DNA of 64,000 bases from Candidatus Woesearchaeota archaeon (lineage in GTDB: Archaea > Nanobdellota > Nanobdellia > SCGC-AAA011-G17 > ARS1403). Shown one piece after another: positions 1-58,104 of the stretch (within the stretch, counting starts at the first letter, position 1; each line of letters begins with the position of its first letter). A model generated the notes under the pieces. That model saw nothing but the letters and a program-made list of their open reading frames with translations. It searched no databases and was not told where the DNA came from. The translations under genes and the position numbers were made by a program. Location: NCBI GenBank assembly GCA_016188065.1, contig JACPIN010000020.1:764-64763 (forward strand), given 5' to 3'.

Positions 1-1143
1 TTATACGAAGGAAAACCGATAGATGGAATAATGGGGGTTAGCTTCAAAAATAAAGAAGGAAAAGCTATTCACAATCCTCAGAGAGAATTAGAGCCTTTAG
101 ATAATTTTCCAAGAATGCCTTATGAATTAATTCCAGAAGAGAAATTAATAAGAAGCGTTGCTGAGATGGATACTAGAGTTATAGATTATTTTTCAAGCCA
201 AGGCTGCCCTTACAGGTGTGAGTTCTGCGCTGACCCAGATGTTTACAAAAGGAGAACCACCCTACATAGTGCTGAAAGAGTTTTGAATGATATACAATTT
301 TTGGTTAATAAGTATAAAATTAACTGCGTTGTCTGCACAGATACTAATTTTTTCATAAATGAAAGAAGGATTCAAGATATTTGCAGAGGCTTGATTGAAA
401 GAGGGATAAAGATTAAATGGGGCAGCTTGAATATCAGAAGTGACCAGTTCTTGAGGTTAAAAGAAGAGACAGTTGAATTGATGGAAAAAGTTCATTTCTA
501 TAGTTTCTTGAATGGAGCTGAATCAGGTGACCAAGAAATTTTGGACTTGATTAAAAAAGATTCCACTGTTGAAAACACAATCAATATGGCCAAGAGGTGC
601 AAGAAGTACGGGTTCAAGGTTTACTTCTCATTCATTATAGGGATGCCATTAATTCCAAATAATGGAAGGACAAGCAAGGATATTGTAAAGCGAGAGTTTG
701 ATGCCCTTGTAAATATTTTAGATAAAATAATATCCATTGAAAAGGGTCATAGTTTTTACTTGTCTATGTATACTCCTTATCCTGGCTCTCCATTGTATCA
801 GAATGCATTGAAACTTGGATTCAAAGATCCTAAGAGTTTAGAGGAATGGGGGGATTTTACATTCGATAAAATAAATGTTCCTTGGATTCCAAAAGGTTAT
901 ATCCAGAAAGTTGACCAGCTTGAAGAATTATTTCTACCTTTCTTAACTGGGCATATCTATAAGAAATTCAAGAACTATGGAATGCTTGGAAAGATTGCTA
1001 AGCCTGGAGCCCAGTTAATTGGAAAAATTGTAGAATACAGGTGGAAAAATAGAAAATTTGGTTATCCAATTGAATATCACTTGTTAAAAAATGGGAAGAG
1101 ATTGATGAGGGCTTTGTATCCTAGAATCGGTTATAAGGATTAG
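1..1143 (+). CDS. B12-binding (class B) radical SAM protein, 5' partial
   Basis: Reading frame is open to the window start. CPYRCEFC is a CxxxCxxC radical-SAM cluster only ~60 aa into the visible part, so the cobalamin-binding N-domain must lie upstream. Confidence 0.7.
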   Translation, partial: LYEGKPIDGIMGVSFKNKEGKAIHNPQRELEPLDNFPRMPYELIPEEKLIRSVAEMDTRVIDYFSSQGCPYRCEFCADPDVYKRRTTLHSAERVLNDIQFLVNKYKINCVVCTDTNFFINERRIQDICRGLIERGIKIKWGSLNIRSDQFLRLKEETVELMEKVHFYSFLNGAESGDQEILDLIKKDSTVENTINMAKRCKKYGFKVYFSFIIGMPLIPNNGRTSKDIVKREFDALVNILDKIISIEKGHSFYLSMYTPYPGSPLYQNALKLGFKDPKSLEEWGDFTFDKINVPWIPKGYIQKVDQLEELFLPFLTGHIYKKFKNYGMLGKIAKPGAQLIGKIVEYRWKNRKFGYPIEYHLLKNGKRLMRALYPRIGYKD

Positions 1144-1178
1144 ATAAGTTTATAATTATTTTTTTAAATTATTTTTTT

Positions 1179-2195
1179 ATGAAAGTTATCGTTTATGCTG
1201 AAGATCCTAATCTTAACTATCTTAAAGGTCTTAATCTTTTAGATAAAAATAAAAAAATTGAATTAGAATTAATAAATTCTCGGTTATTTTCTTCTATGAT
1301 GTCATTTATCAAGGGAAAAATTTCTATTAAAGAACTAATAAAGATATTTTTTGCACCAATCAGAATCCTGTTTTGCAAAAATATTATTGTCTCTACAGGC
1401 CCATATGGAAAGAAAGTTTATTATTTTTTATTATTGAAATTGCTTGGGAAAAATTTAATTTATTATAACTCTTGGCCTTACTGGAATGATAAGGATAAAT
1501 ACATCAACAATCCCGGACTATTCGGCAGATTTTTCTGGAAAATTTTTTTGAAAGACCTGAAAGTGCCTACAGTAACACATTTTGGAGTTGATGAGGTTAA
1601 AAAACTTGGAGCTAGAGGATACTATAAACCCCAGTGCATTGATCCAGAGATATTTAAAGATAAAAATTACAAAAGGGAGAAAAAAGTGGTTTTGTTTGTA
1701 GGAAGATTGATAGAAGAGAAAGGGATTTTTGGAATACTAGAAGTTGCTTCAAGATTGAAAGAGATTGAATTCTGGTTCGTCGGTGATGGTCCTCTTAAGG
1801 ATAAGATAAAAGGGGAAAATATAAAATACCTAGGAACTAAAACTCGAGAAGAATTAGTTGAGTTGTATAATAAAGCGACAATTTTTGTTCTGAATAGCTA
1901 TTCTGCAACTAATAGCAGATGGGAAGAATGGTTTGGCATTTCATTAGTTGAGGCTATGAGTTGTGGCTTACCAGTTGTATCTACTGATTGCATCGGCCCG
2001 AGAGAAATAATAAAAGAGGGAGTAAATGGATTTTTAATACCACAGAAAGATAATGATTCATTAAGAAATAAGATTGTTGAGCTAATAGAAACCAAAAAAT
2101 TGAGAGAGACATTTAGAAAAAATGGGAAAGAAAGTATAAAAGAATATAACGTAACTAATTTGTCTAAGATATGGTATAACTTGCTTCTGGAATGA
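1179..2195 (+). CDS. GT-B fold glycosyltransferase (GT4-like)
   Basis: C-terminal EAMSCGLPVVSTD plus GxNGFL motif typical of the GT1/GT4 donor-binding domain. Confidence 0.7.
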   Translation: MKVIVYAEDPNLNYLKGLNLLDKNKKIELELINSRLFSSMMSFIKGKISIKELIKIFFAPIRILFCKNIIVSTGPYGKKVYYFLLLKLLGKNLIYYNSWPYWNDKDKYINNPGLFGRFFWKIFLKDLKVPTVTHFGVDEVKKLGARGYYKPQCIDPEIFKDKNYKREKKVVLFVGRLIEEKGIFGILEVASRLKEIEFWFVGDGPLKDKIKGENIKYLGTKTREELVELYNKATIFVLNSYSATNSRWEEWFGISLVEAMSCGLPVVSTDCIGPREIIKEGVNGFLIPQKDNDSLRNKIVELIETKKLRETFRKNGKESIKEYNVTNLSKIWYNLLLE

Positions 2196-2230
2196 TTAAT
2201 TTTAAAAACTTTCATTTTAGCTTTTAAAAC

Positions 2231-4102
2231 ATGGTAGGAATTACTGGATATCTTGGAATCAAAGATAAAACCTTGTTGAATAAAATGATAGATTCCTTGA
2301 GATATACTAACAAAGAATTGTCAGATATTTATGGAAGCAGAGAGATATCCATTTCAAGAGTACATCATGGAATTATTGACTCTGAAAAACAACCTATATT
2401 CAACGAGGATAAATCTATTTTTATTGTGATGGAAGGAGAGGTATTTGATTATGAAAATGAAAAAAATGACCTCATTAAAAAAGGCCATAAGTTTAAGCTA
2501 AAAAATAATAGTGCTGAGTTTTGCTTACATCTCTATGAAGAATATGGTGATGATACCTTCGAAAAATTAAATGGAAGCTTTTTGATTACTCTATACGATT
2601 TAAAAAATAAAGAACTTATCTTTGTTACTGATAAACTTGGCTGGTATCCCTTTTTTTATTACATTAACGATAAGAAATTTATTTTTGGTACACAGATGTC
2701 AAGCATATTGCAAGATGGTGAATTTGAAAGGCATTTAAATATAGATTCAATTCATGAATTTTTCACTTTTCAAAGGGTCTTCGGCGATAACACTTTCTAT
2801 AAGAATATTAAGATTTCCTTGCCAGCTACAATTATGAAGATTAAAAGTTATAAAATAAAAACAAAATGCTATTGGAAGATGGATTTTACCTCAGAAGAAC
2901 ATGATGAAGATTACTGGGCTGATGAGTTAGCAAGTGCCTTAAAAAAGGCTATAAATATTAGATTGAATAAAAGAGACTATAAGTTTGGAATCCTTCTAGG
3001 CGGAGGGCTGGATGCTAGAGCTATACTTGCTGGGGCAGATAAAAATGTTACTTGTTTTACTTATGGCACTTATAAAAATAATGAATTTACTTTTGGGGAT
3101 ATGACTGCAAAAATAAAGAAGTCAAAACATGTTTTCTTTCAAATTGATAAGAATCATTTTGCTAATTTGGCTGATGTTTCTATCCGTATTGGTGATGGCA
3201 TGCATCCTTTTATCCATGCTCCATGGATAGGATATTTTGAGGAGATTAAAAAAGATTGCAATGTGTTACTGCATGGGTTTTCTTTTGACATTCTTTTTAG
3301 GGGATTGTTTGTCCCCATGGAGAGGAGATCATTTTTAGGAAGAAATGTTTCAATCAGAAGTATTGATTACACATGGGCTGAAAATAATTTCCTTGATAAG
3401 CTAATTAAAGAAGCGAATTATGGACTGCAAGGCTTAAATCCAGCTCAACTATTTAAAGATAAAAACAATGTCAATAATAATTTGAAGGAAAACTTTACAA
3501 AAGTCCTGGAATCTAGGGAAAATGGCATTAAAAATTTATATGACAGAGTGGATCATTTCTGGATCGACTCACTTTATAGATATCCTTCATTCTTGAATGT
3601 ATCTTGTATAAGGCCTTTTGTCGATGAGATGCTTGTAACTATAGACCCATTATTACTTGATGTCTATCTTAGAATGCCGCCAGAAGCAAGAATCAATGAC
3701 AGAATTTGGAAAAAAACTCTGATAAAATTAAACAAAGACGTTGGAGAAGTTCCTGATGCTAAAACCGGGTTTTCCCCATTGCTGCCAAAATCACTAGAAC
3801 ATGGAATTGTGCTTTCAAGAAAATTGGCTCACAAAATTATGTATAAGATTTTAAATAAGATTAATCCAAAACAAAGAAAAGAGTCTAACTTTGCCGAGTT
3901 AATAAGATATAATAAAAAATTTAGAGAGAAGATGTACAACATAATCAATGATCCAAAAGCAATTAACCCAAAGATATTTGATGTTGAAAATATTAATAAA
4001 ATGTTTAAGCTGCATATTAATGGAAAAGAGGATCATAATACTGCTTTCTTTATTGCATTACTAACATTCGGGAGATGGCATAAAATTTACGGACCTACTT
4101 GA
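2231..4102 (+). CDS. asparagine synthetase B-like protein lacking the N-terminal Cys nucleophile
   Basis: N-domain aligns with AsnB (MVGITGY vs MCGIAG; HLYEEYGDD; KLGWYPFFYY). PP-loop region is LGGGLDARAI versus SGGLDS. An in-frame stop lies immediately upstream of the Met-Val start. Confidence 0.65.
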   Translation: MVGITGYLGIKDKTLLNKMIDSLRYTNKELSDIYGSREISISRVHHGIIDSEKQPIFNEDKSIFIVMEGEVFDYENEKNDLIKKGHKFKLKNNSAEFCLHLYEEYGDDTFEKLNGSFLITLYDLKNKELIFVTDKLGWYPFFYYINDKKFIFGTQMSSILQDGEFERHLNIDSIHEFFTFQRVFGDNTFYKNIKISLPATIMKIKSYKIKTKCYWKMDFTSEEHDEDYWADELASALKKAINIRLNKRDYKFGILLGGGLDARAILAGADKNVTCFTYGTYKNNEFTFGDMTAKIKKSKHVFFQIDKNHFANLADVSIRIGDGMHPFIHAPWIGYFEEIKKDCNVLLHGFSFDILFRGLFVPMERRSFLGRNVSIRSIDYTWAENNFLDKLIKEANYGLQGLNPAQLFKDKNNVNNNLKENFTKVLESRENGIKNLYDRVDHFWIDSLYRYPSFLNVSCIRPFVDEMLVTIDPLLLDVYLRMPPEARINDRIWKKTLIKLNKDVGEVPDAKTGFSPLLPKSLEHGIVLSRKLAHKIMYKILNKINPKQRKESNFAELIRYNKKFREKMYNIINDPKAINPKIFDVENINKMFKLHINGKEDHNTAFFIALLTFGRWHKIYGPT

Positions 4103-4882
4103 AATAAGGCTTGAACAGAAAACTCCATGGCTTTATACCGGCTTTAACTTCTCTATACATAATTATTGCTGTCAATATAGGCAAAATTGCACCATAGATA
4201 ATCAGGATTATATCCAGTGAGCTGAAGATTGCTGCTATCAAGAAGAGATATCTTGAATTAGCACCTTGTATTACTGTAAAAATTAATCTGAATAAATTTC
4301 TTAAAAATGATTTTTTATATTGTGTATGTTTTTCATTGGGTATTGGAACGGATTTATCTATTGATATGTGCGGTGATTTTCCTTGTGCACATTCTACAAG
4401 TTTAGAAAATATTACCTCATGTTTTAGGTACTGGATTATTCCATTATAGAAACTGAAGAATATAGCAGAGATTCCAAAAATTAAAACCAGTATATCAAAG
4501 TGATTTTGCATTACTCCAATTGTGACTCCGGCAAATACCAGTGGCATAATGATTACTTCTGATAAAGAGTCCAAAAACAAACCATCTAGTGAAGTAGCTT
4601 TTTTATATCTTGCCAATTCTCCATCTACTTGATCAATAACGATCATCAACTCGAATGGGACTATTGCAAGGATTGAAAATAGATAATTATTCATTGCAAA
4701 GAAAAAAGCTACTAATACATTAAAAAATAATAAAGAGAGCGTTACTTGATTGGGGGTTATTTGTGTGTTTATAAGTAATCGCGTTATATATATTGAAGAA
4801 CTTTTCCCCTTAAAGTACCAAAATCGTGCATTTCTGAAGGTTTCTGACAGATCTCTCTTAGCTCTTTTATTGTTGGAGACAT
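4095..4882 (-). CDS. CDP-alcohol phosphatidyltransferase family protein, interrupted by a frameshift near 4803-4810
   Basis: DG-x2-AR-x8-G-x3-D-x3-E motif (DGELARYKKATSLDGLFLDSLSE). The upstream open frame encodes the family-typical ITPNQVTL N-terminus without an ATG. An ATG at 4882 in the adjacent frame (MSPTIKEL...LRGK) joins after a 1-nt shift in a GGGGAAAA run. Confidence 0.6.
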
Positions 4883-4933: not shown

Positions 4934-5884
4934 ATGGTAGATAGTATTATCTGCAATAGCATAAAAAACCTTGAGTTGAAAGAAGGGAGGGGAACTGCGA
5001 TTGCTCACCATGGCGAGATCCTGCAAGGAATGTTTGAAGACGCAGGAAAATTATTCAGGGGATCAGTTACTTTACCATGCCACATCTTTGGATCACAAGC
5101 TAGTTTTTTCCCTAAAAAAAATTCTTCTAAAATTGTTGTTGATCCTGAATGGAAAATAAAATCTAAAAAAGCTGCGGAATTAACCTTAAAATCTTTGGGT
5201 GTTGAGGACATAGGAGGTAGATTAATGATTAAAAGCAATACCCCTTTGAGACTAGGTCTTGGCTCTTCCACTAGTGATGTAAATGCTTCTATTTTGTCTG
5301 TTGCAAATTCCCTTGGTGTTGTGTTATCTCCTGTTACAATTGCAAGCATCGCTGTCAAGGCTGAAATAGCAACTGATGCTATAATATTCGGTGAGAGAGC
5401 TGTTCTCTTCGGACATAGAGATGGAAAAGTATTTGAAGACCTTGGTGGCAATTTCCCTCCAATGGAGGTTCTTGGCTTTAATTCCGATCCAGATGGAGAA
5501 GGAGTTGACACTTTAGCTTTCCCTCCTGCAGAATATTCCTGGCAGGAAATTGAAATGCTTAGACCTTTGGTAGGTTTGATGAGAAGGGCCATTTATGAAC
5601 AGAACCCTAAGCTTATCGGAAGAGTTTCAATTGCAAGTACAGAGATTAATCAAAGATTTTTGCCTACCAAAAATTTTGATAGTATAAAAAATATTGTTCG
5701 AAAAGTTAATGCTGCCGGCTTGCAAGCCTCGCATAGTGGCATAGTTGTAGGGATTATATTTGATTCTAATGACGTTGATAAAGAGCAAAAAATTCATAGG
5801 AGCCTTTCTTTATTAAAAGACATTGGCTATGATAATGTGTGGAGATTCAGAACAGATAAATTACATCTGGAGGCAGGCTTATGA
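4934..5884 (+). CDS. GHMP-family kinase
   Basis: PLRLGLGSSTSDVNAS matches the GHMP ATP-binding motif PxGSGLGSSAA. The length of 316 aa fits the family. Confidence 0.65.
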   Translation: MVDSIICNSIKNLELKEGRGTAIAHHGEILQGMFEDAGKLFRGSVTLPCHIFGSQASFFPKKNSSKIVVDPEWKIKSKKAAELTLKSLGVEDIGGRLMIKSNTPLRLGLGSSTSDVNASILSVANSLGVVLSPVTIASIAVKAEIATDAIIFGERAVLFGHRDGKVFEDLGGNFPPMEVLGFNSDPDGEGVDTLAFPPAEYSWQEIEMLRPLVGLMRRAIYEQNPKLIGRVSIASTEINQRFLPTKNFDSIKNIVRKVNAAGLQASHSGIVVGIIFDSNDVDKEQKIHRSLSLLKDIGYDNVWRFRTDKLHLEAGL

Positions 5885-6921
5885 AAAACAGATTAGCTTA
5901 CGATAATATTATTGATTTTGTAGAGCTGCCAAAAATAATTAAATTGGATGATAACCTGTATGGCAGTGCCTTCTTCCTGATGAAATTAATGCCTGCGAGG
6001 TTTATATTAGAGAGAGCTGAAAGGGAAGGCATTTTGAAACCTGGATCTTTGGTTGCTGAAACTACATCCGGAACATTCGGCCTGGCTTTAGCTATGCTAT
6101 GTTCTCTAAAAAGTTACAAATTTATTATGGTAACTGATCCTGTTGTCGATGATGCTTTAAAAAGAAGAATCGAAGATTTAGGCGCTGTTGTTGAGATTGT
6201 TCAAAAACCTGCCGATATCGGTGGTTATCAGCGATCCAGGCTTGATAAATTAGTGGAGATTTTAAAAAAAAATTCTGGAAGCTTTTGCCCTAGCCAATAT
6301 GAAAACACAAACAATCCTGCAGGATATTCAAAGTTTGCTGAAATATTAACTGAATCAGTAGGACATATAGATTGTTTAGTCGGCACTGTCGGTTCTGGTG
6401 GATCTGTCTGCGGTACCAGTAAATATTTAAGACAATTGTTCCCAGATCTGCATGTTGTCGGAGTTGATACCTTGGGAAGCGTAATTTTTGGACAACCTGA
6501 TCAGAAAAGATTGTTGCGAGGTCTTGGAAATAGTTTATGGCCTGATAATGTCGATCATACTGTTTTTAATGAGGTTCATTGGGTAAGCGCTGCTGAGGCT
6601 TTCTTGGCTACTAGAATGCTGCATAGAAAACATGCTTTATTTATGGGAGGAACAAGTGGCGCTGCATATATGGTTGCAAAATGGTGGGCAGAAAAAAATC
6701 CTTGTAAAATCGTTGTATGTATCTTTCCAGATGAAGGATATAGGTATCAAGACACAATATACAATGATAGATGGCTTGAAGAAAATAATGTAAAACTTGA
6801 CAAACTTCCTAATAACCCCATTGAAGTAAAAAATCCGATAGATGCGAAAGCTCAATGGTCTTGTATTGGCTGGAATAGAAGAGATTATGAGAATGTCGTT
6901 GGCAAACATAAAGGAACATGA
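5881..6921 (+). CDS. PLP-dependent fold-type II enzyme, cysteine synthase / SbnA-like
   Basis: AETTSGTFGLALAMLCSLKSYKFIMVTDP and GTVGSGGSVCGT glycine-rich PLP-phosphate loop. Its ATGA start overlaps the upstream kinase stop. Confidence 0.65.
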   Translation: MKNRLAYDNIIDFVELPKIIKLDDNLYGSAFFLMKLMPARFILERAEREGILKPGSLVAETTSGTFGLALAMLCSLKSYKFIMVTDPVVDDALKRRIEDLGAVVEIVQKPADIGGYQRSRLDKLVEILKKNSGSFCPSQYENTNNPAGYSKFAEILTESVGHIDCLVGTVGSGGSVCGTSKYLRQLFPDLHVVGVDTLGSVIFGQPDQKRLLRGLGNSLWPDNVDHTVFNEVHWVSAAEAFLATRMLHRKHALFMGGTSGAAYMVAKWWAEKNPCKIVVCIFPDEGYRYQDTIYNDRWLEENNVKLDKLPNNPIEVKNPIDAKAQWSCIGWNRRDYENVVGKHKGT

Positions 6922-8120
6922 AACCCTATTTTGTTTTTATTGAAAGCAACACTTCTGGAACTGGAAGAATATTCGCTCAAGCTGCTAAAGATAAAGGATT
7001 CAATCCAGTGTTGTTAGCTGGAGACATTTCTAGGTACCATTATGCTAAAGAAGATAACTTAGAGTTTATAAAGGTCAATACTCAAAATGAAACAGATTTA
7101 CTCAACACTTGTAAGAAATTAAAAAATGTTGCAGGTGTTCTTTCCAGCTCAGAATACTTTATTGAAATGGCGGCGATTATTTCTAAAAAATTAAATTTGC
7201 CTGGGGTTAATCCTGATGCAATTAAAAATTGCAGGGACAAAAGCCTTCAGAGAATTATTTTACAAGAAAATAATATCGGAATCCCAAAATTTTATGTCTG
7301 TGAATCTGAAAAAGAATCTGCCGCTGCAAGTAAAAGCATTGGGTACCCTGTTATTGTAAAACCAGTTATGGGTACTGGAAGCGTCGGAGTCAAACTCTGC
7401 ATAAATATTAATGAGGTAGCAGAACATACTAAGCATCTCCTTAAGCAAAAAACAAATGAAAGAGGAATGCCTGTACCACAAAAAGTTCTTGTCGAGGAAT
7501 TTTTAGACGGTGAGGAATACTCTGTTGAAACTTTTGGAGGAAAAATTATCGGGATTACTAAAAAATATGTTGGATCTTTGCCGAACTTTGTTGAGATAGG
7601 CCATGATTTTCCTGCAGATATAGATAGAGATAAAACAAAAAAAATCAATAAAACTACATTGGATGCCCTGGATGCTGTTGGGCTTGACTGTGGACCTGGA
7701 CACGTCGAAGTAAAGTTCGTTTTTGGCGAAGCAAAAATTGTTGAGATCAATCCTAGACTTGCAGGAGGGTTTATCCCTAAACTTGTTGACTATGCTTTTG
7801 GTGTAAACTTAATTAATGAAACGATTAAACTTACCTCTGGAGAAAGAGTAAATTTGGAATCTACAAGAAAGGATTATTCGTCAATCAGATTCATACTCTC
7901 TCCACGCAAGGGCTTATTCTCTAAAGTTGAAGGCTTAGATAACCTTAAAAACAAAAACATAGTTGAGACTTGTATATATAAGAATGAAGGCAATGAAATT
8001 TCAGTCAATGGTGACTTTAGGGATAGGATTGGGCATATAATCTCTTATTCAAAAAATAAGTCAGAGACCATTAGTGCAGCAAATTCTGCTATTAAAAATT
8101 TGAGGGTTATTGTAAAATGA
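6918..8120 (+). CDS. ATP-grasp domain ligase
   Basis: YPVIVKPVMGTGSVGV, EEFLDGEEYSVE and GPGHVEVKF...EINPRLAGG are ATP-grasp motifs. Confidence 0.7.
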   Translation: MKPYFVFIESNTSGTGRIFAQAAKDKGFNPVLLAGDISRYHYAKEDNLEFIKVNTQNETDLLNTCKKLKNVAGVLSSSEYFIEMAAIISKKLNLPGVNPDAIKNCRDKSLQRIILQENNIGIPKFYVCESEKESAAASKSIGYPVIVKPVMGTGSVGVKLCININEVAEHTKHLLKQKTNERGMPVPQKVLVEEFLDGEEYSVETFGGKIIGITKKYVGSLPNFVEIGHDFPADIDRDKTKKINKTTLDALDAVGLDCGPGHVEVKFVFGEAKIVEINPRLAGGFIPKLVDYAFGVNLINETIKLTSGERVNLESTRKDYSSIRFILSPRKGLFSKVEGLDNLKNKNIVETCIYKNEGNEISVNGDFRDRIGHIISYSKNKSETISAANSAIKNLRVIVK

Positions 8121-47034: not shown

Positions 47035-47107
47035 TGGGTCCGCCCAGAATTGAACTGGGGATCTCCGCTACGTCAAAGCGACGTCATAACCACTAGACCA
47101 CGGACCC
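47035..47107 (-). tRNA. tRNA-Val (anticodon GAC)
   Basis: Hand-folded cloverleaf: acceptor GGGTCCG/CGGACCC, anticodon loop TTGACGT, T-arm CCCAG-TTCAATT-CTGGG, discriminator A. No intron. Confidence 0.8.
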
Positions 47108-49978: not shown

Positions 49979-50031
49979 CTATAAATAATAAAATCAAGAA
50001 ATCAATTTTTTAAACATATCTAAAATCTAAT

Positions 50032-50117
50032 AGCCATCGGAGGGATTTGAACCCCCAACCTATTGCTTACAAGGCAACTGAGCTTTTTTAATTGCTCTAC
50101 CATTGAGCTACGATGGC
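50032..50117 (-). tRNA. tRNA-Thr (anticodon UGU) with a ~14-nt non-canonical intron
   Basis: Acceptor GCCATCG/CGATGGC, D-arm GCTC-AATGGTA-GAGC, anticodon arm GTTGC-CTTGTAA-GCAAT, T-arm GGGGG-TTCAAAT-CCCTC. The extra ATTAAAAAAGCTCA sits between the D-arm and the anticodon stem. Confidence 0.6.
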
Positions 50118-50151
50118 TTTGAGAAGATTTAGAAAAAGTTTATTTATTAAA

Positions 50152-50715
50152 TTATTGCTTTTCAAAAATTCTTATCTGGCAGCCTGTAACTGGGTAGATT
50201 TTTTTTAGATGCTCGCGCAACTGCACCTGAAGCTTTGCTTCTAATAATGCATGGATGTTTTCCTGATAGCTCTGCTTTTTGACTGCTGCCCTCAAAAATT
50301 CTTCTGAGTTTTTTCTGATTTTTGACAGAACACCCTTTGTTGTTTTTGATTTTGTAATTAGGACCGGCTTTGCAACCACTGCAATATTGTCTTTTGTCTC
50401 CAGCTTGAAGCTTTGGTCTACCTTGCTTTTGCCAGGGTGCATCATTCGTTTAATAGAACTTGGCATTATCTGATAACCCTTTATTTCTGTCAATGCTTTA
50501 TTATCCTTAATCTCAGTTATCCTGAAGGTTATCTTGACATTCTGCTTTTTAGGATCGTGCAGTAAATCCATTCCAGTCATAGTAACTGTCTTTCCTACTA
50601 GCTTAGAAGGGTCCGAGGTTAGTGTTTCTCCAATCTCCGGGATCCTGAAGCCAGGTGTTGGCAGTATAGAATACCAGTGCTTTTTCTTTACCTTTATTTC
50701 CTGCTTTGCCATCAT
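50152..50715 (-). CDS. rps3ae: 30S ribosomal protein S3Ae (eS1)
   Basis: KKKHWYSILPTPGF N-terminal signature and a length typical of archaeal S3Ae. Confidence 0.8.
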   Translation of the reverse strand: MMAKQEIKVKKKHWYSILPTPGFRIPEIGETLTSDPSKLVGKTVTMTGMDLLHDPKKQNVKITFRITEIKDNKALTEIKGYQIMPSSIKRMMHPGKSKVDQSFKLETKDNIAVVAKPVLITKSKTTKGVLSKIRKNSEEFLRAAVKKQSYQENIHALLEAKLQVQLREHLKKIYPVTGCQIRIFEKQ

Positions 50716-50862
50716 TAGATTTCCATAAAGTTCGTTTATAAAATTATTGTTTTCAGAGTGTTAAGTTTCCGAGTGGTTGATTAGCTGTTATGTATCGGGT
50801 GACGGAGAGGATGTCGCATTATCAGGAGATAATTTTAATGTCTTATGGAAGGGCTTAAAGAT

Positions 50863-51924
50863 TCATACTTCCCCCCTTTTCTCTAAATAAAATTGTAAGT
50901 ATTCCAAAAATTCTCTTGAATTTGCAAAATAATTTAGATATGCTTTTTTTAGTTCTTCAACAGAATCTGCTCCAACAAGAACTACATCCTTATCCTTACT
51001 ATCGCTTTGTAATTTTTCTGCTTCTAAATAATGTTCTGTTGCGATCGTTTCTCCTTCTTCGGGATAACCTCTGATACTTAGATTTGGTTTTGTCTCATCG
51101 GATACATCCAATTCTAATAAAAAGAATTTCCATTCTTTAAGTTTTGGTTCTATAACTTTCAATGCTTGCGTCCAACTTCTCATTTTTGAAAATATTTTCA
51201 ATTTGTCCACTTTTTCTTTTATAGCACTGAATAGATTAGCATTATTTGTGGGGGTGTTTTCTACTTCTTTTTGTTTTTCAATTTTTGCAAAGGCAGAACT
51301 TAATAATCTAAAAAATTCTTTCCATTCTTCATCGCCCTCATTTGATTTAATTGCTTGTTTTGTAAACAAATCCACTATCTCTATTGCTGTTGCCCACGCA
51401 TGCTGAATTTTGCTTCTGACTTGTATCTCAATAAGCAATCCATCGTAAGTGTTTATTTTATCGCTTTTGTATCTGTAAATTAAATGCATACTTCTATATC
51501 CATCTTTTTTAGGATTTTTTATATAGTCTTTTTCTCTAATTTTTTTATGCTTAAGCCCTCTACTTTTTCTATAAATTCCCACTAATTCATTAACTTTATC
51601 CACATCAGAAAGAACAGCTCTACAACCCGCAATATCTTGCATTTGAGATAAACTCATGGTTTTTGTCTGGTCTCTTTTTAATTTTTTAATAATTGAAGGG
51701 GCTCTTTTCAACCTTTGTACAACTAAGTAGTTTTCATCTACCTTTTTTGATACTTGCCTTAATCTTGCTTGAAAAGTATTCATGGGGTAACCATGAGATG
51801 AACGCCAATTGTTCAAAATTGACATTGCTTCTTCTTTTTCTTCTTCTGTAGAATCTTCACTAACAAGAATATGTCCTGCTCTGTCTATTTTTGCTTTTCC
51901 GTATTTTGGCTTAGTCCATGCCAT
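50863..51924 (-). CDS. RelA/SpoT-domain nucleotidyltransferase (small alarmone synthetase-like)
   Basis: DIAGCRAV, GYRSMHLIYR and EIQVRSKIQHAWA match the RelA/SpoT synthetase motifs (GYRSLH...EIQIRT..Q..WA). An extra C-terminal domain of about 150 aa follows. Confidence 0.7.
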   Translation of the reverse strand: MAWTKPKYGKAKIDRAGHILVSEDSTEEEKEEAMSILNNWRSSHGYPMNTFQARLRQVSKKVDENYLVVQRLKRAPSIIKKLKRDQTKTMSLSQMQDIAGCRAVLSDVDKVNELVGIYRKSRGLKHKKIREKDYIKNPKKDGYRSMHLIYRYKSDKINTYDGLLIEIQVRSKIQHAWATAIEIVDLFTKQAIKSNEGDEEWKEFFRLLSSAFAKIEKQKEVENTPTNNANLFSAIKEKVDKLKIFSKMRSWTQALKVIEPKLKEWKFFLLELDVSDETKPNLSIRGYPEEGETIATEHYLEAEKLQSDSKDKDVVLVGADSVEELKKAYLNYFANSREFLEYLQFYLEKRGEV

Positions 51925-51947
51925 GCGATTATTAATTACTTAATTAC

Positions 51948-52045
51948 GCATGCTTTATATATCTTTGCATGCTTAAAAATTAACGCATGCAAAGGTTTAA
52001 ATATAGGGTTACATCATTATTGCATGCGTATTTTTATTTGCATGC
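51948..52045. promoter_or_regulatory. array of five GCATGC palindromes at ~18-19-bp phasing in a divergent intergenic region
   Basis: GCATGC occurs at 51948, 51967, 51985, 52022 and 52040. The last lies within the 10-bp palindrome TTGCATGCAA. The array sits between the RelA/SpoT gene and ORF 52052. Confidence 0.5.
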
Positions 52046-52051
52046 AATAAA

Positions 52052-52285
52052 ATGGAAAACACACAACAATATATAAAAAGTTTCTCCTCATGGAGAGAAG
52101 AAAGAGCAAAGGCAATTTTAGAGAAAGGTAACCCTCAAATTTTAGATGAATTTACCTATTTTGTGCCTTCTCAATCATCAGATAAAAAATACAAAGTAAC
52201 CCACATTGACGCTTATAGCTGTAATGTGCAGACTTTCAAAACAGATGTAAAGGCAAAAGGTTATACTGCAAACACCAGCAGATAA
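52052..52285 (+). CDS. small hypothetical protein (77 aa) divergent from the RelA/SpoT gene
   Basis: ORF only, no recognisable domain. Its start lies 7 nt after the last GCATGC site. Confidence 0.3.
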   Translation: MENTQQYIKSFSSWREERAKAILEKGNPQILDEFTYFVPSQSSDKKYKVTHIDAYSCNVQTFKTDVKAKGYTANTSR

Positions 52286-52400
52286 ATGTGGTATTGGAGT
52301 TCAAGGTAACACATGGGAAACAATACTATTAAACTCAATTAAATACAAAAACACTTACGCCTTAACAGCAGAGGAGAAAATGCCAATAACACCCTTATTC

Positions 52401-53768
52401 CTAACACTCTCTTGTTTTCACTCTCACTGCTCTTGCAAGCCCTATGAACTCAGATTCTTTTTCCCGATGGATTAAAGCGCCAGCTGCGTTCCTATGGCCG
52501 CCTGCCTGAAACCCTAGCTTGGAGGTTATTGAATCCAGGATTTCCTTTAAATTGAGATTATTATTTTTGTGGCCTGAGCAGCGCATGGATATTTTTGTGC
52601 TTTCCTCTGCGGTATGCGCCATGGAGATTATTATTGTATTTTCTGGATAGAGATTAGACTTGGCTATCATTGAAGTTAATGTCCCTATGATCGTATCCCT
52701 TACATGATTTTCAGCGTTAATAATAACAAGATTTCCCACTTCAATTATTTTTTCTTTATTATTGTAAAACCAGTTCAATGACGAGATTAATTCCTTTTTG
52801 TAGTCGTTCAGTGTGCTGATTGCTGCTTCCTTCAGATTTTTATCCCCTATGCATGCAGCGATTCCTAAAGAATATCTATTCAACCTGCCGCAGGAATTCA
52901 GCAAAGTTGCAAACTCTCTCAGATCTTTTAGAGGAGACTCTTCCTGCTCTGTTTTCAATAAGTAAATTGGGCCGAGCACATCTTCAGGATTTTCCTCTGA
53001 CCCTAACCTCTGCAGGATTATTGATGTAACTAGATTCTTCATCTCTTCCTTGCTTAGATGAATTAATTTTTTTTCAGGATTGATGCCCAATTCATTGAGA
53101 AATTCTTTTGATGCCTGCTCGCTTCCGGTTATTCCAGGAATATAAGGATCTGTTGAATACTGCAGCAGCTTGCATAAATGCTTTGTCTGCGCTCCGAACA
53201 TCCTCAAACCTGTTGTTATCTCCAGATATGGCTTTGCATCTTCCAGAATTATTTTGTTTATTGACGTAAATCCCCCATTATCCTGGTTGTCACCTATTGC
53301 GCCTACTAGAGCTAATGTTGATAGATCTTTATTTTTCTCGTCTAAAGATTTTGCAAATAGATATGCAAGGCCTGCTCCAGAAACATCCTTGTTCCCGTCT
53401 AAGCCAAAAAGCATCGGGTTTAAATGAATGAAATTATTTTCAAAATGCTCTGGCTGATGATGATCAAGAATAATTATTTTTTTTGCATTGATTGCTTCTT
53501 TTATTTCTGCCAGATTTCCTGAGCCCAAATCGACGAATAAAAAAGTTTCATAAGATTCTGACTTGAATTGCGATAGAGTGTTGATAGAAATCTGCTTGAC
53601 AATTGTTAAAGCAAACTTCTTGTTCAGCCTCTTCAATGCTTTTGTAATTATCGCAGCTGAAGAAATTCCGTCTGCATCTAAATGTGAAATTACTCTTACT
53701 GTGCCGTTGCCGTTCCTTAAGTTTTCAGCTTCCTGCTTTACTTTTTCAAGAAATGATTGCATCATCAT
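52401..53768 (-). CDS. DHH/DHHA1 phosphoesterase (archaeal RecJ/GAN-like or nanoRNase)
   Basis: ISHLDADGISS (DxD), IILDHHQPE (DHH) and GFQAGGHRNAAG (the GGGH motif of DHHA1). Confidence 0.65.
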   Translation of the reverse strand: MMMQSFLEKVKQEAENLRNGNGTVRVISHLDADGISSAAIITKALKRLNKKFALTIVKQISINTLSQFKSESYETFLFVDLGSGNLAEIKEAINAKKIIILDHHQPEHFENNFIHLNPMLFGLDGNKDVSGAGLAYLFAKSLDEKNKDLSTLALVGAIGDNQDNGGFTSINKIILEDAKPYLEITTGLRMFGAQTKHLCKLLQYSTDPYIPGITGSEQASKEFLNELGINPEKKLIHLSKEEMKNLVTSIILQRLGSEENPEDVLGPIYLLKTEQEESPLKDLREFATLLNSCGRLNRYSLGIAACIGDKNLKEAAISTLNDYKKELISSLNWFYNNKEKIIEVGNLVIINAENHVRDTIIGTLTSMIAKSNLYPENTIIISMAHTAEESTKISMRCSGHKNNNLNLKEILDSITSKLGFQAGGHRNAAGALIHREKESEFIGLARAVRVKTREC

Positions 53769-54220
53769 TCAATTAAAAGGGATGCATGCTCTCTTGAGAA
53801 TCTCCAGTCTTGAGGGAGCTTGTCATTTGCCTTGTAATATTTGGCCAGCCTCTTTATCTTTGATTCTGTCAGCTGCAAACCCCTGACTGACGGCTGGTCT
53901 TTCCTGTTTGCCTGCAGATGCTTCGTTATGTTTATATATTTTCTAATTAAATTCAGCATATCTTCAGGGAGCTTTGGAAGCAGCTTTTCCTCTGCCAGAA
54001 TCTGGGTTATTGATTTCCCAGTTAATTGGCTAACGCTAGGTATTCCGTATGAGTCTCTTAAGATTATGCCTATCTGAGAATGAGATTTCTGAGCCTTTGC
54101 CAGCTTAGATATTAATTGTGTTAGCTCATTCTTGTCATACCTCTGCCAGGTAATTTTCTTTGCGCTTAGTGGCTTTTTACTGCCAGACTTTCCTTTCTTA
54201 CCTGAGTGCATTCTTGCCAT
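53765..54220 (-). CDS. rps15: 30S ribosomal protein S15 (uS15, S13e-type)
   Basis: MARMHSGKKGKSGSKKP is the archaeal S15 N-terminus. The ORF-track start at 54280 is an upstream extension, so Met at 54220 is preferred. Confidence 0.8.
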   Translation of the reverse strand: MARMHSGKKGKSGSKKPLSAKKITWQRYDKNELTQLISKLAKAQKSHSQIGIILRDSYGIPSVSQLTGKSITQILAEEKLLPKLPEDMLNLIRKYINITKHLQANRKDQPSVRGLQLTESKIKRLAKYYKANDKLPQDWRFSREHASLLIE

Positions 54221-54305
54221 TTTAATATTGAGTGAACAGCTTGAAACTAGAAAAAATTTCCAGCATAGGCAAGCTTTCACTGACCTATCTTGAAAAGAAT
54301 TGCAA

Positions 54306-54624: not shown

Positions 54625-55368
54625 TTAAAATTTTGAATAATAATCAGCCCATGTCCATCCTTTCTGCTTTATCAGGTGCTTGCAAATCATTGATGTATCT
54701 GCGTAAATTGGAATCTTCAACTCTGTTAGATCCTTGCAGAAAAACGCATCATCGAAAACAAAGTAGTTTTTTTCTTTTTTATCATACTCTTTTGAATAAT
54801 GAAAACTAATTTTTTTTAAAACCGAATTATGTATGAATAAACATCCTGAGCCGCATGAAGCTATCTGCATTAATTCTCCTGTTAATTCTCCCTCTTCCAA
54901 CTGCTGGATTACCTCTTTTTTATTTGTGAATTTCCAAATTGTTGGAAATATTCTTCCAAATCTTATTCCTTCTCTTGAACCCAATTTCTTCGGTGTAAAA
55001 TTTTTATAATTGAAATATATTCCAGTGATTACTCTTTTTTTATGCTGTAAAAACCGCCCTATAATCTCTTTTGGTGGAATAACATCCTGATCAATATTGA
55101 GGAAAAAATCATAATTATCTTCGAGAACTTTCTGCCTGAGAATATTTCTTGAATGCACCATCCTATCCCTTGGCTCTTCAAAGTATTTTCCCCTAATTAC
55201 ATTTACTTTCATTGATTTTAATTTTTTATAGAAGCTATCTGTTTTTGAATTGTCAATAAGCAAGACATCATAATTTCCATAGGTTAGACTTTTAACGGCT
55301 TCTACATATTCTTTAATGCAGTAATCATACATTTCATTTACAGGGCTGCCGACGAGGATTTTTTTCAT
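54625..55368 (-). CDS. small GT-A fold glycosyltransferase, paralog 4
   Basis: VGSPVNEMYDY, LLIDNSKTD, SRNILRQKVLEDNYDFFLNIDQDVIPP. Confidence 0.55.
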   Translation of the reverse strand: MKKILVGSPVNEMYDYCIKEYVEAVKSLTYGNYDVLLIDNSKTDSFYKKLKSMKVNVIRGKYFEEPRDRMVHSRNILRQKVLEDNYDFFLNIDQDVIPPKEIIGRFLQHKKRVITGIYFNYKNFTPKKLGSREGIRFGRIFPTIWKFTNKKEVIQQLEEGELTGELMQIASCGSGCLFIHNSVLKKISFHYSKEYDKKEKNYFVFDDAFFCKDLTELKIPIYADTSMICKHLIKQKGWTWADYYSKF

Positions 55369-55369
55369 T

Positions 55370-56056
55370 TTATTTAAGATTGCTCCAACTCCAAGGCCTG
55401 TTTTTGATTAAATGCCTGCAGATCATATTTGTGTCTGCATAGATTTCTATTTTGTTATCTCTGCAGTCAAGCCCAAAAAAAATATCGTCGAACGCCGGGT
55501 ATTGCTTTTCATATCTGAATTTTATTTTCTCCAAAACTGATCTGTGCATTAATATGCAGCCAACTCCGGACATCGCAATCTTTATCAATCCTCTATTCAA
55601 CTCGGACGGCTTGAGAAAATACCTTTCCTCTTTTTCTAGATTTACTTTAGACCAGACTACCGGAGCTAGCTCAACACCTTTTTTTGTGTTTATGTAATTA
55701 AAATATACTCCTGTGACTACTCTTTTTTTATGCTGGAGAAGCCTTTCTATAACATCTTTTGGAGGGATAACATCCTGCTCTAAACTTAAAAAATAATCAT
55801 AATTGCCGTCGAGGACTTTCTGCCTGAGGATGTTTCTTGAAGTTATTATTCTTTCCCTGGCTGATTCAAAGTAAGGCCCTTTTACCGTCGGTAAATTTAA
55901 CGAATTTAGTTTTTTAAAATAAGAATCCTCTTTAGAGTTGTCGACCAGCATAATGTCATAGTTTTTGTAAGATAAGGACTTAACGGCTTCTGCATACTCT
56001 TTTAATGCATATTCGTGGTAGTCTGAAGTCGGGCAGCCTACTAAGATCTTTTTCAT
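55370..56056 (-). CDS. small GT-A fold glycosyltransferase, paralog 5
   Basis: VGCPTSDYHEY, MLVDNSKED, SRNILRQKVLDGNYDYFLSLEQDVIPP. Internal Met 56056 preferred over the ORF-track start at 56074. Confidence 0.55.
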   Translation of the reverse strand: MKKILVGCPTSDYHEYALKEYAEAVKSLSYKNYDIMLVDNSKEDSYFKKLNSLNLPTVKGPYFESARERIITSRNILRQKVLDGNYDYFLSLEQDVIPPKDVIERLLQHKKRVVTGVYFNYINTKKGVELAPVVWSKVNLEKEERYFLKPSELNRGLIKIAMSGVGCILMHRSVLEKIKFRYEKQYPAFDDIFFGLDCRDNKIEIYADTNMICRHLIKNRPWSWSNLK

Positions 56057-56751
56057 TTTTTTATCTTGCTCCATGGATAAGGCCTGTTATAAATTAAGTG
56101 TTTGCATTTTATTGACGTATCTGCATACACTGGAATATTCTTGTTGTATAGATCTAGGAAAAACCATCTATCGTCGAAAGAATTTAAATCGTATCTGAAT
56201 TGAACTTCTTTTAAAACATCTCTGTGGATTAAAACACATCCTAACCCTGCTGAAATAATTTTCATTAGCCCTTGATTTTTCCAAAGCTCATCTTCATTTA
56301 ATGGGCGCATTGAAAGCGTTTTTTCATCCTCTAAAACATAAGCCAATGGAATCAATTTCGATAATGTTTCTCCTGGAATCATATTGTTGGCAAAATAAAC
56401 GGCTGTAATAACTTTTTTGTTGTGCTTGATTAATCTTTCTAAGATATCTTTTGGCGGGATAACATCCTGCTCCAGAGAGAAGAGATAATCATAATTGCCG
56501 TCGAGGACTTTCTGCCTGAGAATATTTCTTGAAGTTATTATCCTTTCCCTGGCTGATTCAGACCAAGCGCCTTTTATTACTGAGAGACCTGCCTCTTTTA
56601 TTTTATCTGAATAAGTATCGTCTCGAGAATTATCAACAAGCAGAATATCATGATTTTTATAAACAATCTTCTTAAGTGACTCTGTATACTGCTGCAGGGC
56701 GTATTCTTTATGAAAACTTGTTGGGCATCCTACCAGTACCTTTGGCTGCAT
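56053..56751 (-). CDS. small GT-A fold glycosyltransferase, paralog 6
   Basis: VGCPTSFHKEY, LLVDNSRDD, SRNILRQKVLDGNYDYLFSLEQDVIPP. Shares ~90-bp tracts of about 95% nucleotide identity with paralog 5. Confidence 0.55.
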   Translation of the reverse strand: MQPKVLVGCPTSFHKEYALQQYTESLKKIVYKNHDILLVDNSRDDTYSDKIKEAGLSVIKGAWSESARERIITSRNILRQKVLDGNYDYLFSLEQDVIPPKDILERLIKHNKKVITAVYFANNMIPGETLSKLIPLAYVLEDEKTLSMRPLNEDELWKNQGLMKIISAGLGCVLIHRDVLKEVQFRYDLNSFDDRWFFLDLYNKNIPVYADTSIKCKHLIYNRPYPWSKIKK

Positions 56752-56802
56752 ATCGCTTATATACTGAAAAGGCTTAAAAACATAATTGAATTTAATTTTT
56801 AC

Positions 56803-58104
56803 ATGAAGATCGTGTTCCTTGAGGTGGAATCTGACAAGAAGATTTATAGGGATTATAACGGCGGATATGGAACTAGCTTTAATGCAGGTAAATCCCTTCT
56901 TGGAAAATTTTTAACAGGCTTGAGAACAACTAAAGAATATTTTCCTTACATGCCTTATGCCTATGGTGCAACCGTAATGAAGAAAAATGGGCACGAGGTT
57001 TCCATTTCTACAAATAAAACTGATGATGCTGATTTAGTTATAATGCATGCTTCTATGCCAAATCACAGCCATGAAATGAAATACTTGAAAGCGTTGAATG
57101 AAGAAGGAATTAAGGTTGGAATCATTGGACCTTTTGCCGGGATGAAGCCTGAACTTTTTGAAGATGCTGAGTTTATTATTAAGGGCGATGTTGAAAATAT
57201 TCTGGGAGGAATAAAAAAAGAGAAAGATATCCCTCATGGATTAGTCAGCTCTTCTGTCTCTAATCTAGATGAACTTCCATATCCTGACTGGAGCCTGTTT
57301 CCCGTTGAAAAATTTTCTTATAGCCCGATTATTACAAAGAAGCCATTTACTTTTGTCCTGTCAAGCAGAGGATGCACTTACGGCTGCAATTACTGCCCAT
57401 ATATTTCTGAATCTAACCTCGGAAGCAAATATCGGATGAGAAGCGTTGAAAACGTAATCGGTGAATTGAAACACTTGAAAGAAAAATTTGGCATTAAAGG
57501 AATACAGTTTAGAGATCCTTTATTTACATTAATTAAAAAAAGAACTGAAGATTTGTGCAGAGCAATTATTAAAGAAAATCTTGGAATTGAGTTTGGCTGT
57601 GAAACTAGGCTTGATAGGGTTGATGAAAATCTGCTGGATTTGATGCATGAAGCTGGATTTAGAGCTTTGAAAGTTGGGATCGAATCTGCTGATCTTGAAG
57701 TTTTAAGGAAAAGCAAAAGAATGCCAATAGCTTTGGAGCACCAAGAGAGAATGATTAAGCATTGTGACAACATTGGAATGAAAGTTGTTGGCTTCTATGT
57801 TATTGGACTGGAGAATGATACCGAGGAGACAGTAAAAGCCACTTTAAAATATTCTAAAAAATTGAATACTGATTTTGCTAACTTTACTATCTGCACCCCA
57901 ATTCCCGGGACTGAGTTTTATGATACTGTAAAAGATAGGATTAATACAGAGGATTATGACTTATTTGACAACTTCCATGTCACTTTTGACCATCCAAACA
58001 TTCCTAAGGAAAAAATAATCAAATATCAGGAAAAAGCATTAGTCGGATATTATTTAAGGCCGAGATATTTTTATAAATATTTTACAAAGACAATATTTAC
58101 ATGA
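56803..58104 (+). CDS. B12-binding (class B) radical SAM protein
   Basis: MKIVFLEV... cobalamin-domain start, then SSRGCTYGCNYCPY (CxxxCxxC). The ORF-track start at 56710 overlaps the divergent GT gene. Confidence 0.7.
   Translation: MKIVFLEVESDKKIYRDYNGGYGTSFNAGKSLLGKFLTGLRTTKEYFPYMPYAYGATVMKKNGHEVSISTNKTDDADLVIMHASMPNHSHEMKYLKALNEEGIKVGIIGPFAGMKPELFEDAEFIIKGDVENILGGIKKEKDIPHGLVSSSVSNLDELPYPDWSLFPVEKFSYSPIITKKPFTFVLSSRGCTYGCNYCPYISESNLGSKYRMRSVENVIGELKHLKEKFGIKGIQFRDPLFTLIKKRTEDLCRAIIKENLGIEFGCETRLDRVDENLLDLMHEAGFRALKVGIESADLEVLRKSKRMPIALEHQERMIKHCDNIGMKVVGFYVIGLENDTEETVKATLKYSKKLNTDFANFTICTPIPGTEFYDTVKDRINTEDYDLFDNFHVTFDHPNIPKEKIIKYQEKALVGYYLRPRYFYKYFTKTIFT

Follow-up and report, generated by a model that had tools for sequence, protein, structure and literature searches.

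Radical SAM enzymes within glycosyltransferase modules of a probable cell-envelope glycan island in a Woesearchaeota archaeon

The 64,000-nucleotide stretch of contig JACPIN010000020.1 analyzed here (the “window”), from a Candidatus Woesearchaeota archaeon (DPANN), encodes six radical S-adenosylmethionine (rSAM) enzymes, designated A, B, C, D, S1, and S2. The window is AT-rich (G+C content of 31–37%), and six rSAM genes among ~57 genes is a density far over the normal. Each of the six adjoins, or overlaps by 4 bp, a gene for a glycosyltransferase (GT1, GT2, or GT-C), a flippase-like protein, or a short-chain dehydrogenase/reductase (SDR), which bears out an earlier sequence-only reading of the window in which the rSAM enzymes take part in glycan or glycolipid assembly. 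The window is probably a cell-envelope glycan island in which modules of glycosyltransferases and sugar-editing rSAM enzymes stand independently of a phosphonate cassette, and the rSAM enzymes probably represent four or more separate, uncharacterized subfamilies rather than a set of methylases. The six genes and the genes that accompany them are as follows.

1–1143, plus strand: A, class-B-type (B12-type) rSAM, N-terminus cut by the window edge (~149 aa absent); PF04055, CPYRCEFC at residue 69
1179–2195, plus strand: GT1 glycosyltransferase directly 3' of A; PF00534, 133.8 bits
18954–20090, minus strand: S1, SPASM rSAM without a close characterized relative; PF04055, PF13186 at 33.9 bits (cut-off 21.5)
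20107–21111, minus strand: HpnA-like SDR, same strand as S1 and upstream of it; TIGR03466, 170 bits, under cut-off
24232–25653, minus strand: B, complete class-B rSAM; PF02310 at 49.8 bits, PF04055 at 96.5 bits, GGTHP
25650–26534, minus strand: S2, BtrN-like twitch-domain rSAM of 294 aa, 4-bp overlap with B; PF13186 at 51.4 bits
26595–27503, minus strand: flippase-like membrane protein; PF03706, TIGR00374 at 68.5 bits (above the cut-off of 43.2)
27500–28372, minus strand: GT2, polyprenyl/dolichyl-phosphate hexose transferase-like; AglJ 145.7 bits and dolichyl-phosphate (Dol-P)-hexose transferase 111.7 bits, both under cut-off
28369–29988, minus strand: GT-C (PMT_2/ArnT-like), first gene of the minus-strand operon; PF13231, PF02366
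31479–34935, mixed strands: PAP2 phosphatase (minus), two SDRs (plus), and a UbiA-family enzyme (plus), by Pfam matches; a set resembling the decaprenyl-phosphoribose/arabinose route
34983–36455, plus strand: C, class-B rSAM with a premature TAA at 35781–35783; PF02310 at 67.7 bits, GGLHP
36497–39309, plus strand: two GT-C (PMT_2) transferases 3' of C; PF13231, PF02366
54625–56751, minus strand: three small GT2/Anp1-like transferases, divergent from D; syntenic in loci L013 and L016, the nearest one also at the cut end of L012
56803–58104, plus strand: D, AprD4-like rSAM with a degenerate Rossmann domain, probably cobalamin-free; no PF02310, no GGxH
58101–58892, plus strand: SDR reductase, putative AprD3-like partner, 4-bp overlap with D; PF01370

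Pfam and NCBIfam searches covered the ~57 genes. All six rSAM genes, at the coordinates proposed in the sequence-only reading, match PF04055 and carry the CxxxCxxC motif, and a six-frame scan of the 64 kb identified no genuine rSAM motif beyond them. The starts of D (56803) and S1 (20090) are sensible internal ATGs of longer open reading frames (ORFs; 56710–58104 and 18954–20186, respectively). The SPASM/twitch domains attributed to S1 and S2 are borne out by PF13186, and the reported interruption of C is a single in-frame TAA with no frameshift.

That four of the enzymes are cobalamin-dependent, as had been proposed, is probable for three of them on domain architecture. Within the window, the B12-binding domain PF02310 (gathering cut-off of 32.1 bits) is above threshold only in B and C. 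For A, the full-length relatives P0241 (90% identity) and P0242 (79% identity), both 529 aa, contain PF02310 and PF04055, and the B12 domain of A would fall in the ~149 residues upstream of the window. D is AprD4-like and lacks PF02310. A GGxH-type motif is present in the relatives of A (WGGWHP), in B (GGTHP), and in C (GGLHP), and is absent from D. The tally is three class-B architectures (A, B, and C), one AprD4-like enzyme (D), one BtrN-like enzyme (S2), and one orphan SPASM enzyme (S1). The DxHxxG motif, suggested earlier as a test of cobalamin binding, was searched for in the rSAM proteins of the window and none carries it; the motif is uninformative here because solved class B enzymes bind cobalamin base-off with no protein ligand (PMC12931638).

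Comparison with characterized rSAM enzymes rested on NCBIfam models (PhpK, Sden_1168, HpnJ, and others) and on solved structures. A, B, C, and D share 25–29% pairwise identity and differ in their best relatives, and thus they do not fall together within a single non-methylating clade. None reaches the cut-off of a curated NCBIfam family. The top curated-model match of A, B, and D is HpnJ (TIGR03471) at 110.7, 161.9, and 164.6 bits against a cut-off of 577.6, and the N-terminal half of C scores best against BchE, also far under cut-off. Weaker matches among the four include PhpK, Sden_1168, ApyD, AprD4, and the methyl-coenzyme M reductase (MCR) glutamine methylase. Against solved structures, A and B match AprD4, QCMT, and TokK weakly. 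The earlier premise that class B membership implies methylation is not supported, as C is nearest to OxsB, a ring-contraction enzyme (PMC12931638), and the HpnJ and BchE models, whose scores lie far under cut-off, both describe non-methylating enzymes. The families are large, with at least 573 relatives for B, 1,135 for D, and ~19,000 cluster representatives at E ≤ 1e-10 for C, the last sought with the N-terminal half of C as query. Clusters of 3–5 rSAM genes per 11–17 kb also occur in the related loci L001, L003, L008, and L011.

D is the enzyme for which a reaction can be proposed most specifically. No PF02310 match was found in D even at E ≤ 1; within its family, 20 of 31 members have sub-threshold PF02310 matches (best 4e-5), and 117 of the 120 best relatives have no recorded B12 domain. 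The closest solved structure is AprD4 (6e-30 by sequence and 6e-43 by profile). An AlphaFold2 (AF2) model of D, built from 31 sequences with a predicted local distance difference test (pLDDT) score of 93.3, aligns over its whole length to AprD4 (6fd2) in Foldseek with template modeling (TM) scores of 0.84/0.80, whereas all non-AprD4 structures have a TM score of ≤0.65, the next by E-value being MgmA/QCMT at 0.63. AprD4 is a rSAM 1,2-diol dehydratase that, together with the NADPH reductase AprD3, deoxygenates a sugar (PMC5461906), and it does not bind cobalamin (PMC12931638).

In a species-level genome collection, homologs of D were confirmed at 580 places; of the 79 loci retrieved, 19 encode a homolog of ≥40% identity. 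Co-occurrence of neighbors was scored with small hidden Markov models, as plain blastp was too insensitive for GC-rich bacterial loci. An SDR gene lies directly 3' of the D homolog in 13 of these 19 loci and within 3 kb in 16. The 19 loci belong to DPANN archaea, Patescibacteria, Omnitrophota, Gemmatimonadota, Planctomycetia, and a Xanthobacteraceae metagenome-assembled genome (MAG), the nearest being from Woesearchaeota MAGs, and GT2 and/or GT-C genes often adjoin the D homologs. On the basis of fold and gene context, D and the overlapping SDR are best read as a dehydratase–reductase (deoxygenation) pair whose reaction is predicted from that of AprD4/AprD3. Homologs at loci L027–L090 (≤38% identity; Planctomycetota, Acidobacteriota, Myxococcota, and Pelagibacteraceae) mostly have no SDR, GT2, or GT-C neighbors.

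The genes for B and S2 close a minus-strand operon in the order GT-C, GT2, flippase-like, S2, and B, with 4-bp overlaps. The sequence of B is 100% identical to that of a Woesearchaeota protein in NCBI. The AF2 model of B (pLDDT 92.9) aligns at TM scores of 0.65–0.71 to MgmA, CysS, TsrM, TokK, OxsB, and AprD4 in Foldseek; with no preferred structural neighbor, structure does not decide the reaction type of B. The best solved match of S2 is BtrN (E = 2e-12, full length), a twitch-domain rSAM that oxidizes a secondary alcohol of an aminocyclitol, and the residues C211, C229, C272, and C275 of S2 are in register with the four auxiliary-cluster Cys of BtrN, as is the rSAM Cys triad. A role of S2 as a sugar-alcohol dehydrogenase is chemically plausible on these alignments. 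The order GT-C, GT2, flippase-like, B is complete in L103 (a metagenome contig), while L001 has GT2, flippase-like, and B, and L131 has GT-C, GT2, and flippase-like genes with divergent rSAM genes. Comparing L103:1–4021 with 24232–29988, B is 95% identical, GT2 is 79% identical, the flippase-like and GT-C proteins are 48–49% identical, and S2 is absent. Such mosaic identity suggests cassette exchange at gene boundaries. C-like B12 rSAMs pair with S2-like rSAMs in L112, L113, L117, L118, L121, L152, L156, and L157, in some with an SDR between them.

C lies between the UbiA enzyme and the two GT-Cs, with PAP2 and two SDRs upstream. The UbiA enzyme scores 188 bits against the decaprenyl-phosphate phosphoribosyltransferase model (cut-off of 234). 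The premature stop arises from one change, GAA (Glu) to TAA; the nearest relative, at L142 (~90% identity), is intact and reads RILEEKIDIK, and five relatives at 64–74% identity are intact ORFs of 489–490 aa. Homologs have Lys, Glu, or Asp at the position of the stop, and C retains all family-invariant residues 3' of it. Judged by these alignments, the stop is either a very recent nonsense mutation, a variant within the population, or an error of assembly. Recoding of TAA was ruled out, since TAA is an ordinary stop that ends 24 of the 57 genes and the relatives are intact, and a split gene was ruled out as well, since no ATG start follows the stop (the first Met is ~54 codons later) and the relatives are intact. 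Among solved structures, OxsB is nearest to C (8e-20 by sequence and 3.5e-33 by profile). Met71 of C aligns with OxsB Asn186 at the lower face of cobalamin, a position that is mostly hydrophobic in the C family, and by a rule of thumb (PMC12931638) this residue weakly hints at radical methylation.

The A-type rSAM followed by GT1 is also found in L011. S1 is grouped with the HpnA-like SDR and a GT1, as is the SPASM rSAM of L001 with an SDR and a GT1. The best solved match of S1 is SkfB at 7e-5, and S1 has five C-terminal Cys compared to the seven-Cys motif for two auxiliary clusters, suggesting that it may hold a single auxiliary cluster.

Next to the minus-strand operon is a pair of genes for conventional sugar methylation.

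21894–24228, plus strand: NDP-hexose C-methyltransferase (PF08484, PF08421, PF13489) and GDP-mannose 4,6-dehydratase (TIGR01472, 421.8 bits, cut-off 415), overlapping

As the SAM-dependent C-methyltransferase overlaps the dehydratase, a C-methyl-branched deoxyhexose could arise without radical chemistry. A genuine and complete phosphonate cassette lies at lower coordinates.

11197–17809, plus strand: phosphonate cassette with CyTase-PepM, two TauD-family genes, nucleotidyltransferase (LicC/PntC-like), Ppd, and iron-containing alcohol dehydrogenase (Fe-ADH)

The CyTase-PepM fusion scores 403.8 bits against TIGR02320 (cut-off of 319.55), contains the EDKIGLKRNS motif, and has a Fom1-type cytidylyltransferase domain. 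No rSAM gene lies inside the cassette, and the nearest class-B gene is 6.4 kb away. Of the 71 C-family loci none has PepM; of the 79 D-family loci 3 have it, never adjacent, and it is missing from all of L001–L011. Judged by gene context, the link to Fom3 and phosphonates drawn in the sequence-only reading is unsupported. A CDP-alcohol phosphatidyltransferase is encoded near the cassette at 4095–4694, and together with the cassette genes it suggests a hydroxylated, hydroxyethylphosphonate (HEP)-type phosphonate on a lipid or glycan.

The window as a whole encodes at least 14 glycosyltransferases, including two GT1, three GT2 (one with a fused methyltransferase), six small GT2/Anp1-like, and three GT-C of the PMT_2 type, as well as a Wzx-type flippase, seven SDR “epimerase/dehydratase” proteins, the GDP-mannose 4,6-dehydratase, the sugar C-methyltransferase, and the phosphonate cassette. 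The window further encodes S3Ae and S15, both archaeal ribosomal proteins, along with a protein of S-layer type. Other features of the window are as follows.

2231–4102: AsnB-type amidotransferase, adjoining the run at 4934–9568
4934–9568: GHMP kinase, pyridoxal phosphate (PLP)-dependent enzyme, ATP-grasp L-amino-acid ligase, and argininosuccinate-lyase-like genes
42954–43730, 47107–48509, and 54625–56751: six paralogous small GT2/Anp1-like transferases (226–258 aa) flanking the S-layer gene and D
43809–46085: S-layer gene
50031–54280: housekeeping block with a tRNA call, rpS3Ae, a RelA/SpoT-like gene, a DHH-family gene, and rpS15

The glycan context of the proposed “island” stands, although it is not a single unit, as the housekeeping genes at 50031–54280 cut across it. 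The run at 4934–9568 and the AsnB-type amidotransferase have the look of a cassette for a glycan substituent derived from an amino acid. Encoded at 50863–51924, amid ribosomal protein genes of an archaeon, is a 353-aa protein whose RelA/SpoT synthetase-type domain matches PF04607 at 74 bits. ARAGORN called two overlong “tRNA-Phe” genes of 88 nt (50031–50118) and 92 nt (60021–60112), one with the odd anticodon AAA, which may be intron-containing or miscalled archaeal tRNAs. A Fic-domain protein and a protein at the 3' end of the window are encoded at 60987–61901 and 63485–64000; the latter appears by eye to be HAD-type phosphatase-like and is possibly related to heptose-bisphosphate phosphatases, which suggests that the sugar-metabolism region runs beyond the window. 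A second PepM at this end, an idea taken from L016, was rejected on the same by-eye reading.

The association between rSAM enzymes and glycan assembly extends beyond the window. The pairings of rSAM with glycan genes recur in other DPANN, Candidate Phyla Radiation (CPR), and Omnitrophota loci, and several homologs are fused to glycan enzymes, including a C-type B12 rSAM with Bac_transf (PF02397, a polyprenyl-phosphate sugar-phosphate transferase domain; P0354 and L123:6995–9172), GT1 with a B12 rSAM (P0408), and GT2 with a rSAM (L011:14066–16123). The fusions to GT1, GT2, and Bac_transf are independent support for a link to lipid-carrier and glycan assembly. Other fusions join class I methyltransferases to B- or C-type rSAMs (P0097, P0322, and P0344). 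Radical tailoring of lipid-linked surface sugars is supported. As for its chemistry, which had been expected to comprise C-methylation, epimerization, and dehydration, dehydration by D is plausible, as is alcohol oxidation by S2, whereas a reading in which all are methylases is not borne out.

In the proposed explanation, the window contains five gene modules, each of glycosyltransferases with one or two rSAM enzymes that would edit sugars by radical chemistry. The substrates would most likely be polyprenyl- or dolichyl-phosphate sugars, edited on the cytoplasmic side prior to export. A Dol-P-hexose-synthase-like GT2 would first place a sugar on the lipid carrier, and S2 would then oxidize a secondary alcohol of the sugar in a BtrN-like manner, followed by a cobalamin-dependent step of B on the same intermediate, which may be C-methylation or rearrangement. 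The flippase-like protein and GT-C would bring the product to the outer face. In the D module, D would dehydrate a vicinal diol and the overlapping SDR would reduce the resulting ketone to yield a deoxy sugar, in the manner of AprD4/AprD3. C would act on a polyprenyl-phospho-pentose supplied by the UbiA/PAP2/SDR set, but would be knocked out here by the nonsense codon.

Several points weigh against this explanation. D scores 132.3 bits against the AprD4 equivalog NF033070 (cut-off of 500) and is ~21% identical to AprD4, and thus the exact reaction of D is a prediction. Homologs of D at ≤38% identity (mostly Planctomycetota, Acidobacteriota, and Myxococcota) have an adjacent SDR at only 4 of 60 loci, and, being mostly without SDR, they are probably a functionally different subgroup. 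S2 is absent from the L103 operon despite its 95%-identical B, indicating that B does not need S2, and the synteny of SDR, SDR, UbiA, and C was found at only one other locus, L104. The substrates could be nucleotide sugars instead of lipid-linked sugars. Cobalamin binding by A, B, and C is predicted from domain homology alone, and DPANN archaea are not known as cobamide makers. More generally, the functions assigned here to the rSAM subfamilies are predictions.

Among the alternatives, the one that survives best is ring contraction, although we regard it as unlikely. Here A, B, and/or D would resemble HpnJ or calditol synthase and contract the ring of a hexose held on a lipid, leaving a membrane lipid or carrier with a carbocyclic head group (cyclitol- or calditol-like). 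HpnJ as the top curated model of A, B, and D (111–165 bits) is consistent with this, and the HpnA-like SDRs and GT2 alongside echo the logic of hopanoid HpnI/HpnK/HpnJ. Calditol synthase, an archaeal rSAM, has a lipid-linked hexose as its substrate (PMC13459092), and OxsB, the best solved relative of C, contracts a ring too. However, the scores are far under the HpnJ cut-off of 577.6, D fits AprD4 much better than other structures, and the presence of GT-C in the modules implies onward sugar transfer rather than a terminal head group.

A second alternative, which we consider distinctly unlikely, is that each of the four B12-type proteins is a C-methyltransferase dependent on cobalamin and that one or more of them, like Fom3, acts on a cytidylylated phosphonate from the cassette. 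The B12-binding domains of B, C, and the A family are genuine, and C-methyltransferases have received the most study and are the best represented group of the enzyme class (PMC12931638). The hydrophobic Met71 of C at the lower face of cobalamin resembles radical methylases, PepM has a Fom1-type cytidylyltransferase domain, and B- and C-type rSAMs are found fused to class I methyltransferases. Nevertheless, D is AprD4-like without a B12 domain, the cassette has no rSAM gene, and PepM almost never occurs with the A, B, C, and D families. The CyTase-PepM fusion is itself generic, as fusions of PF01467 to Ppm account for 23.6% of Ppm proteins and are characteristic of phosphonate tailoring at the cell surface (PMC6697681). 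The best matches of C and A/B (OxsB, HpnJ, and BchE) are non-methylating, and a conventional sugar C-methyltransferase is already encoded at 21894–23180.

It is improbable that the class-B rSAMs alter the isoprenoid carrier or membrane lipids (e.g., by chain methylation) instead of sugars. There are weak matches to the lipid-biosynthesis B12 rSAM model TIGR04072, Tes/GDGT-MAS, and HpnR, and lipid-carrier enzymes (UbiA and PAP2) adjoin C; yet the sugar-related matches are stronger than the lipid-rSAM ones, the rSAM genes are linked to glycosyltransferases and SDR sugar enzymes rather than lipid-synthesis genes, and the fusions are to GT1, GT2, and Bac_transf domains. Modification of a peptide or S-layer protein (protein methylation or maturation resembling that of ribosomally synthesized and post-translationally modified peptides, RiPPs) by the SPASM/twitch and some class-B enzymes, placed in the island by chance, is highly improbable: SPASM enzymes are typically peptide maturases, weak matches to the RiPP methylase models TIGR03975 and ApyD exist, and an S-layer gene lies at 43809–46085, but neither precursor-peptide genes nor RiPP recognition elements were seen beside the rSAM genes, the best match of S2 is the sugar-acting BtrN, and the conserved neighbors are sugar enzymes.

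Tailoring of surface sugars by several distinct rSAM subfamilies thus remains the preferred explanation, and it has wider implications. Documented archaeal glycosylation pathways are without rSAM steps; the term radical SAM is absent from a 2024 review on N-glycosylation in archaea, and a literature search found no paper on rSAM enzymes in DPANN glycan clusters. Tentatively, and with more doubt than confidence, we suggest that DPANN, CPR, and Omnitrophota share a modular radical glycan-editing toolkit for polyprenyl-phosphate sugars, consisting of AprD4-like enzymes with an SDR, BtrN-like oxidation, and orphan cobalamin-type rSAMs, swapped as cassettes between GT2/flippase-like/GT-C operons. 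If so, the toolkit would allow deoxy, branched, or carbocyclic surface sugars to be made anaerobically, through a chemistry known so far mainly from aminoglycoside and hopanoid pathways, and would tie the surface structure of cobamide-auxotrophic symbionts to B12 from hosts or the community. Likewise, should A, B, and C require cobamides, genome-reduced symbionts would rely on outside B12 for their surface chemistry. A 2017 review (PMC5461906) reported AprD4 as the sole rSAM dehydratase known, and the D–SDR pair raises the possibility that AprD4-type radical deoxygenation is widespread in surface-sugar synthesis of uncultivated anaerobes. For annotation, “B12-binding radical SAM” does not equate to a methylase, nor are D-type proteins to be equated with cobalamin-dependent enzymes.

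Compared to known systems, A, B, and C resemble the solved class B rSAMs (OxsB, TokK, TsrM, MgmA/QCMT, and CysS) in combining an N-terminal B12-binding Rossmann domain with the rSAM barrel and in lacking DxHxxG. However, A–C are only 12–18% identical to these enzymes and under curated thresholds, and their reaction may be methylation or rearrangement. A, B, and C share their enzyme class with Fom3, the C-methylase of CMP-HEP, and the Fom1-like CyTase-PepM, Ppd, and Fe-ADH of the window could make CMP-HEP, but the rSAM genes are not in or beside the cassette, the rSAM families are almost always without PepM, and no epoxidase (HppE) was seen. As in the HpnJ and calditol synthase systems, a GT2-made lipid-linked sugar may be edited by a rSAM with an HpnA-like SDR near, and HpnJ is the best model for A, B, and D; unlike in those systems, the scores are 3–5 times under the HpnJ cut-off, the window has no hopanoid genes, and GT-C implies onward transfer.

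The mycobacterial decaprenyl-phospho-arabinose route consists of UbiA (Rv3806c), PAP2 (Rv3807c), DprE1/DprE2, and GT-C arabinosyltransferases. The C module likewise has a phosphoribosyltransferase-like UbiA, PAP2, SDRs, and two GT-Cs; it differs in having no FAD-dependent DprE1, in a UbiA under curated cut-offs, and in the class-B rSAM between UbiA and the GT-Cs. S2 is similar to BtrN in size, aligns over its full length, and retains the rSAM Cys triad and the four auxiliary Cys, although its identity is low and it is translationally coupled to a class-B rSAM in a GT-C/GT2/flippase-like operon. Lastly, D shares with AprD4 of the AprD4/AprD3 pair (C3' deoxygenation of apramycin) the same full-length fold (TM score of 0.84), the CxxxCxxC core, a Rossmann-like N-terminal domain without a B12 signature, and a coupled reductase-type gene. 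The partner of D is an extended-SDR “epimerase” family protein whose likeness to AprD3 is putative, and D, at ~21% identity, resides in an archaeal/CPR surface-glycan cluster with GT2 and GT-C genes rather than in an actinomycete aminoglycoside cluster.

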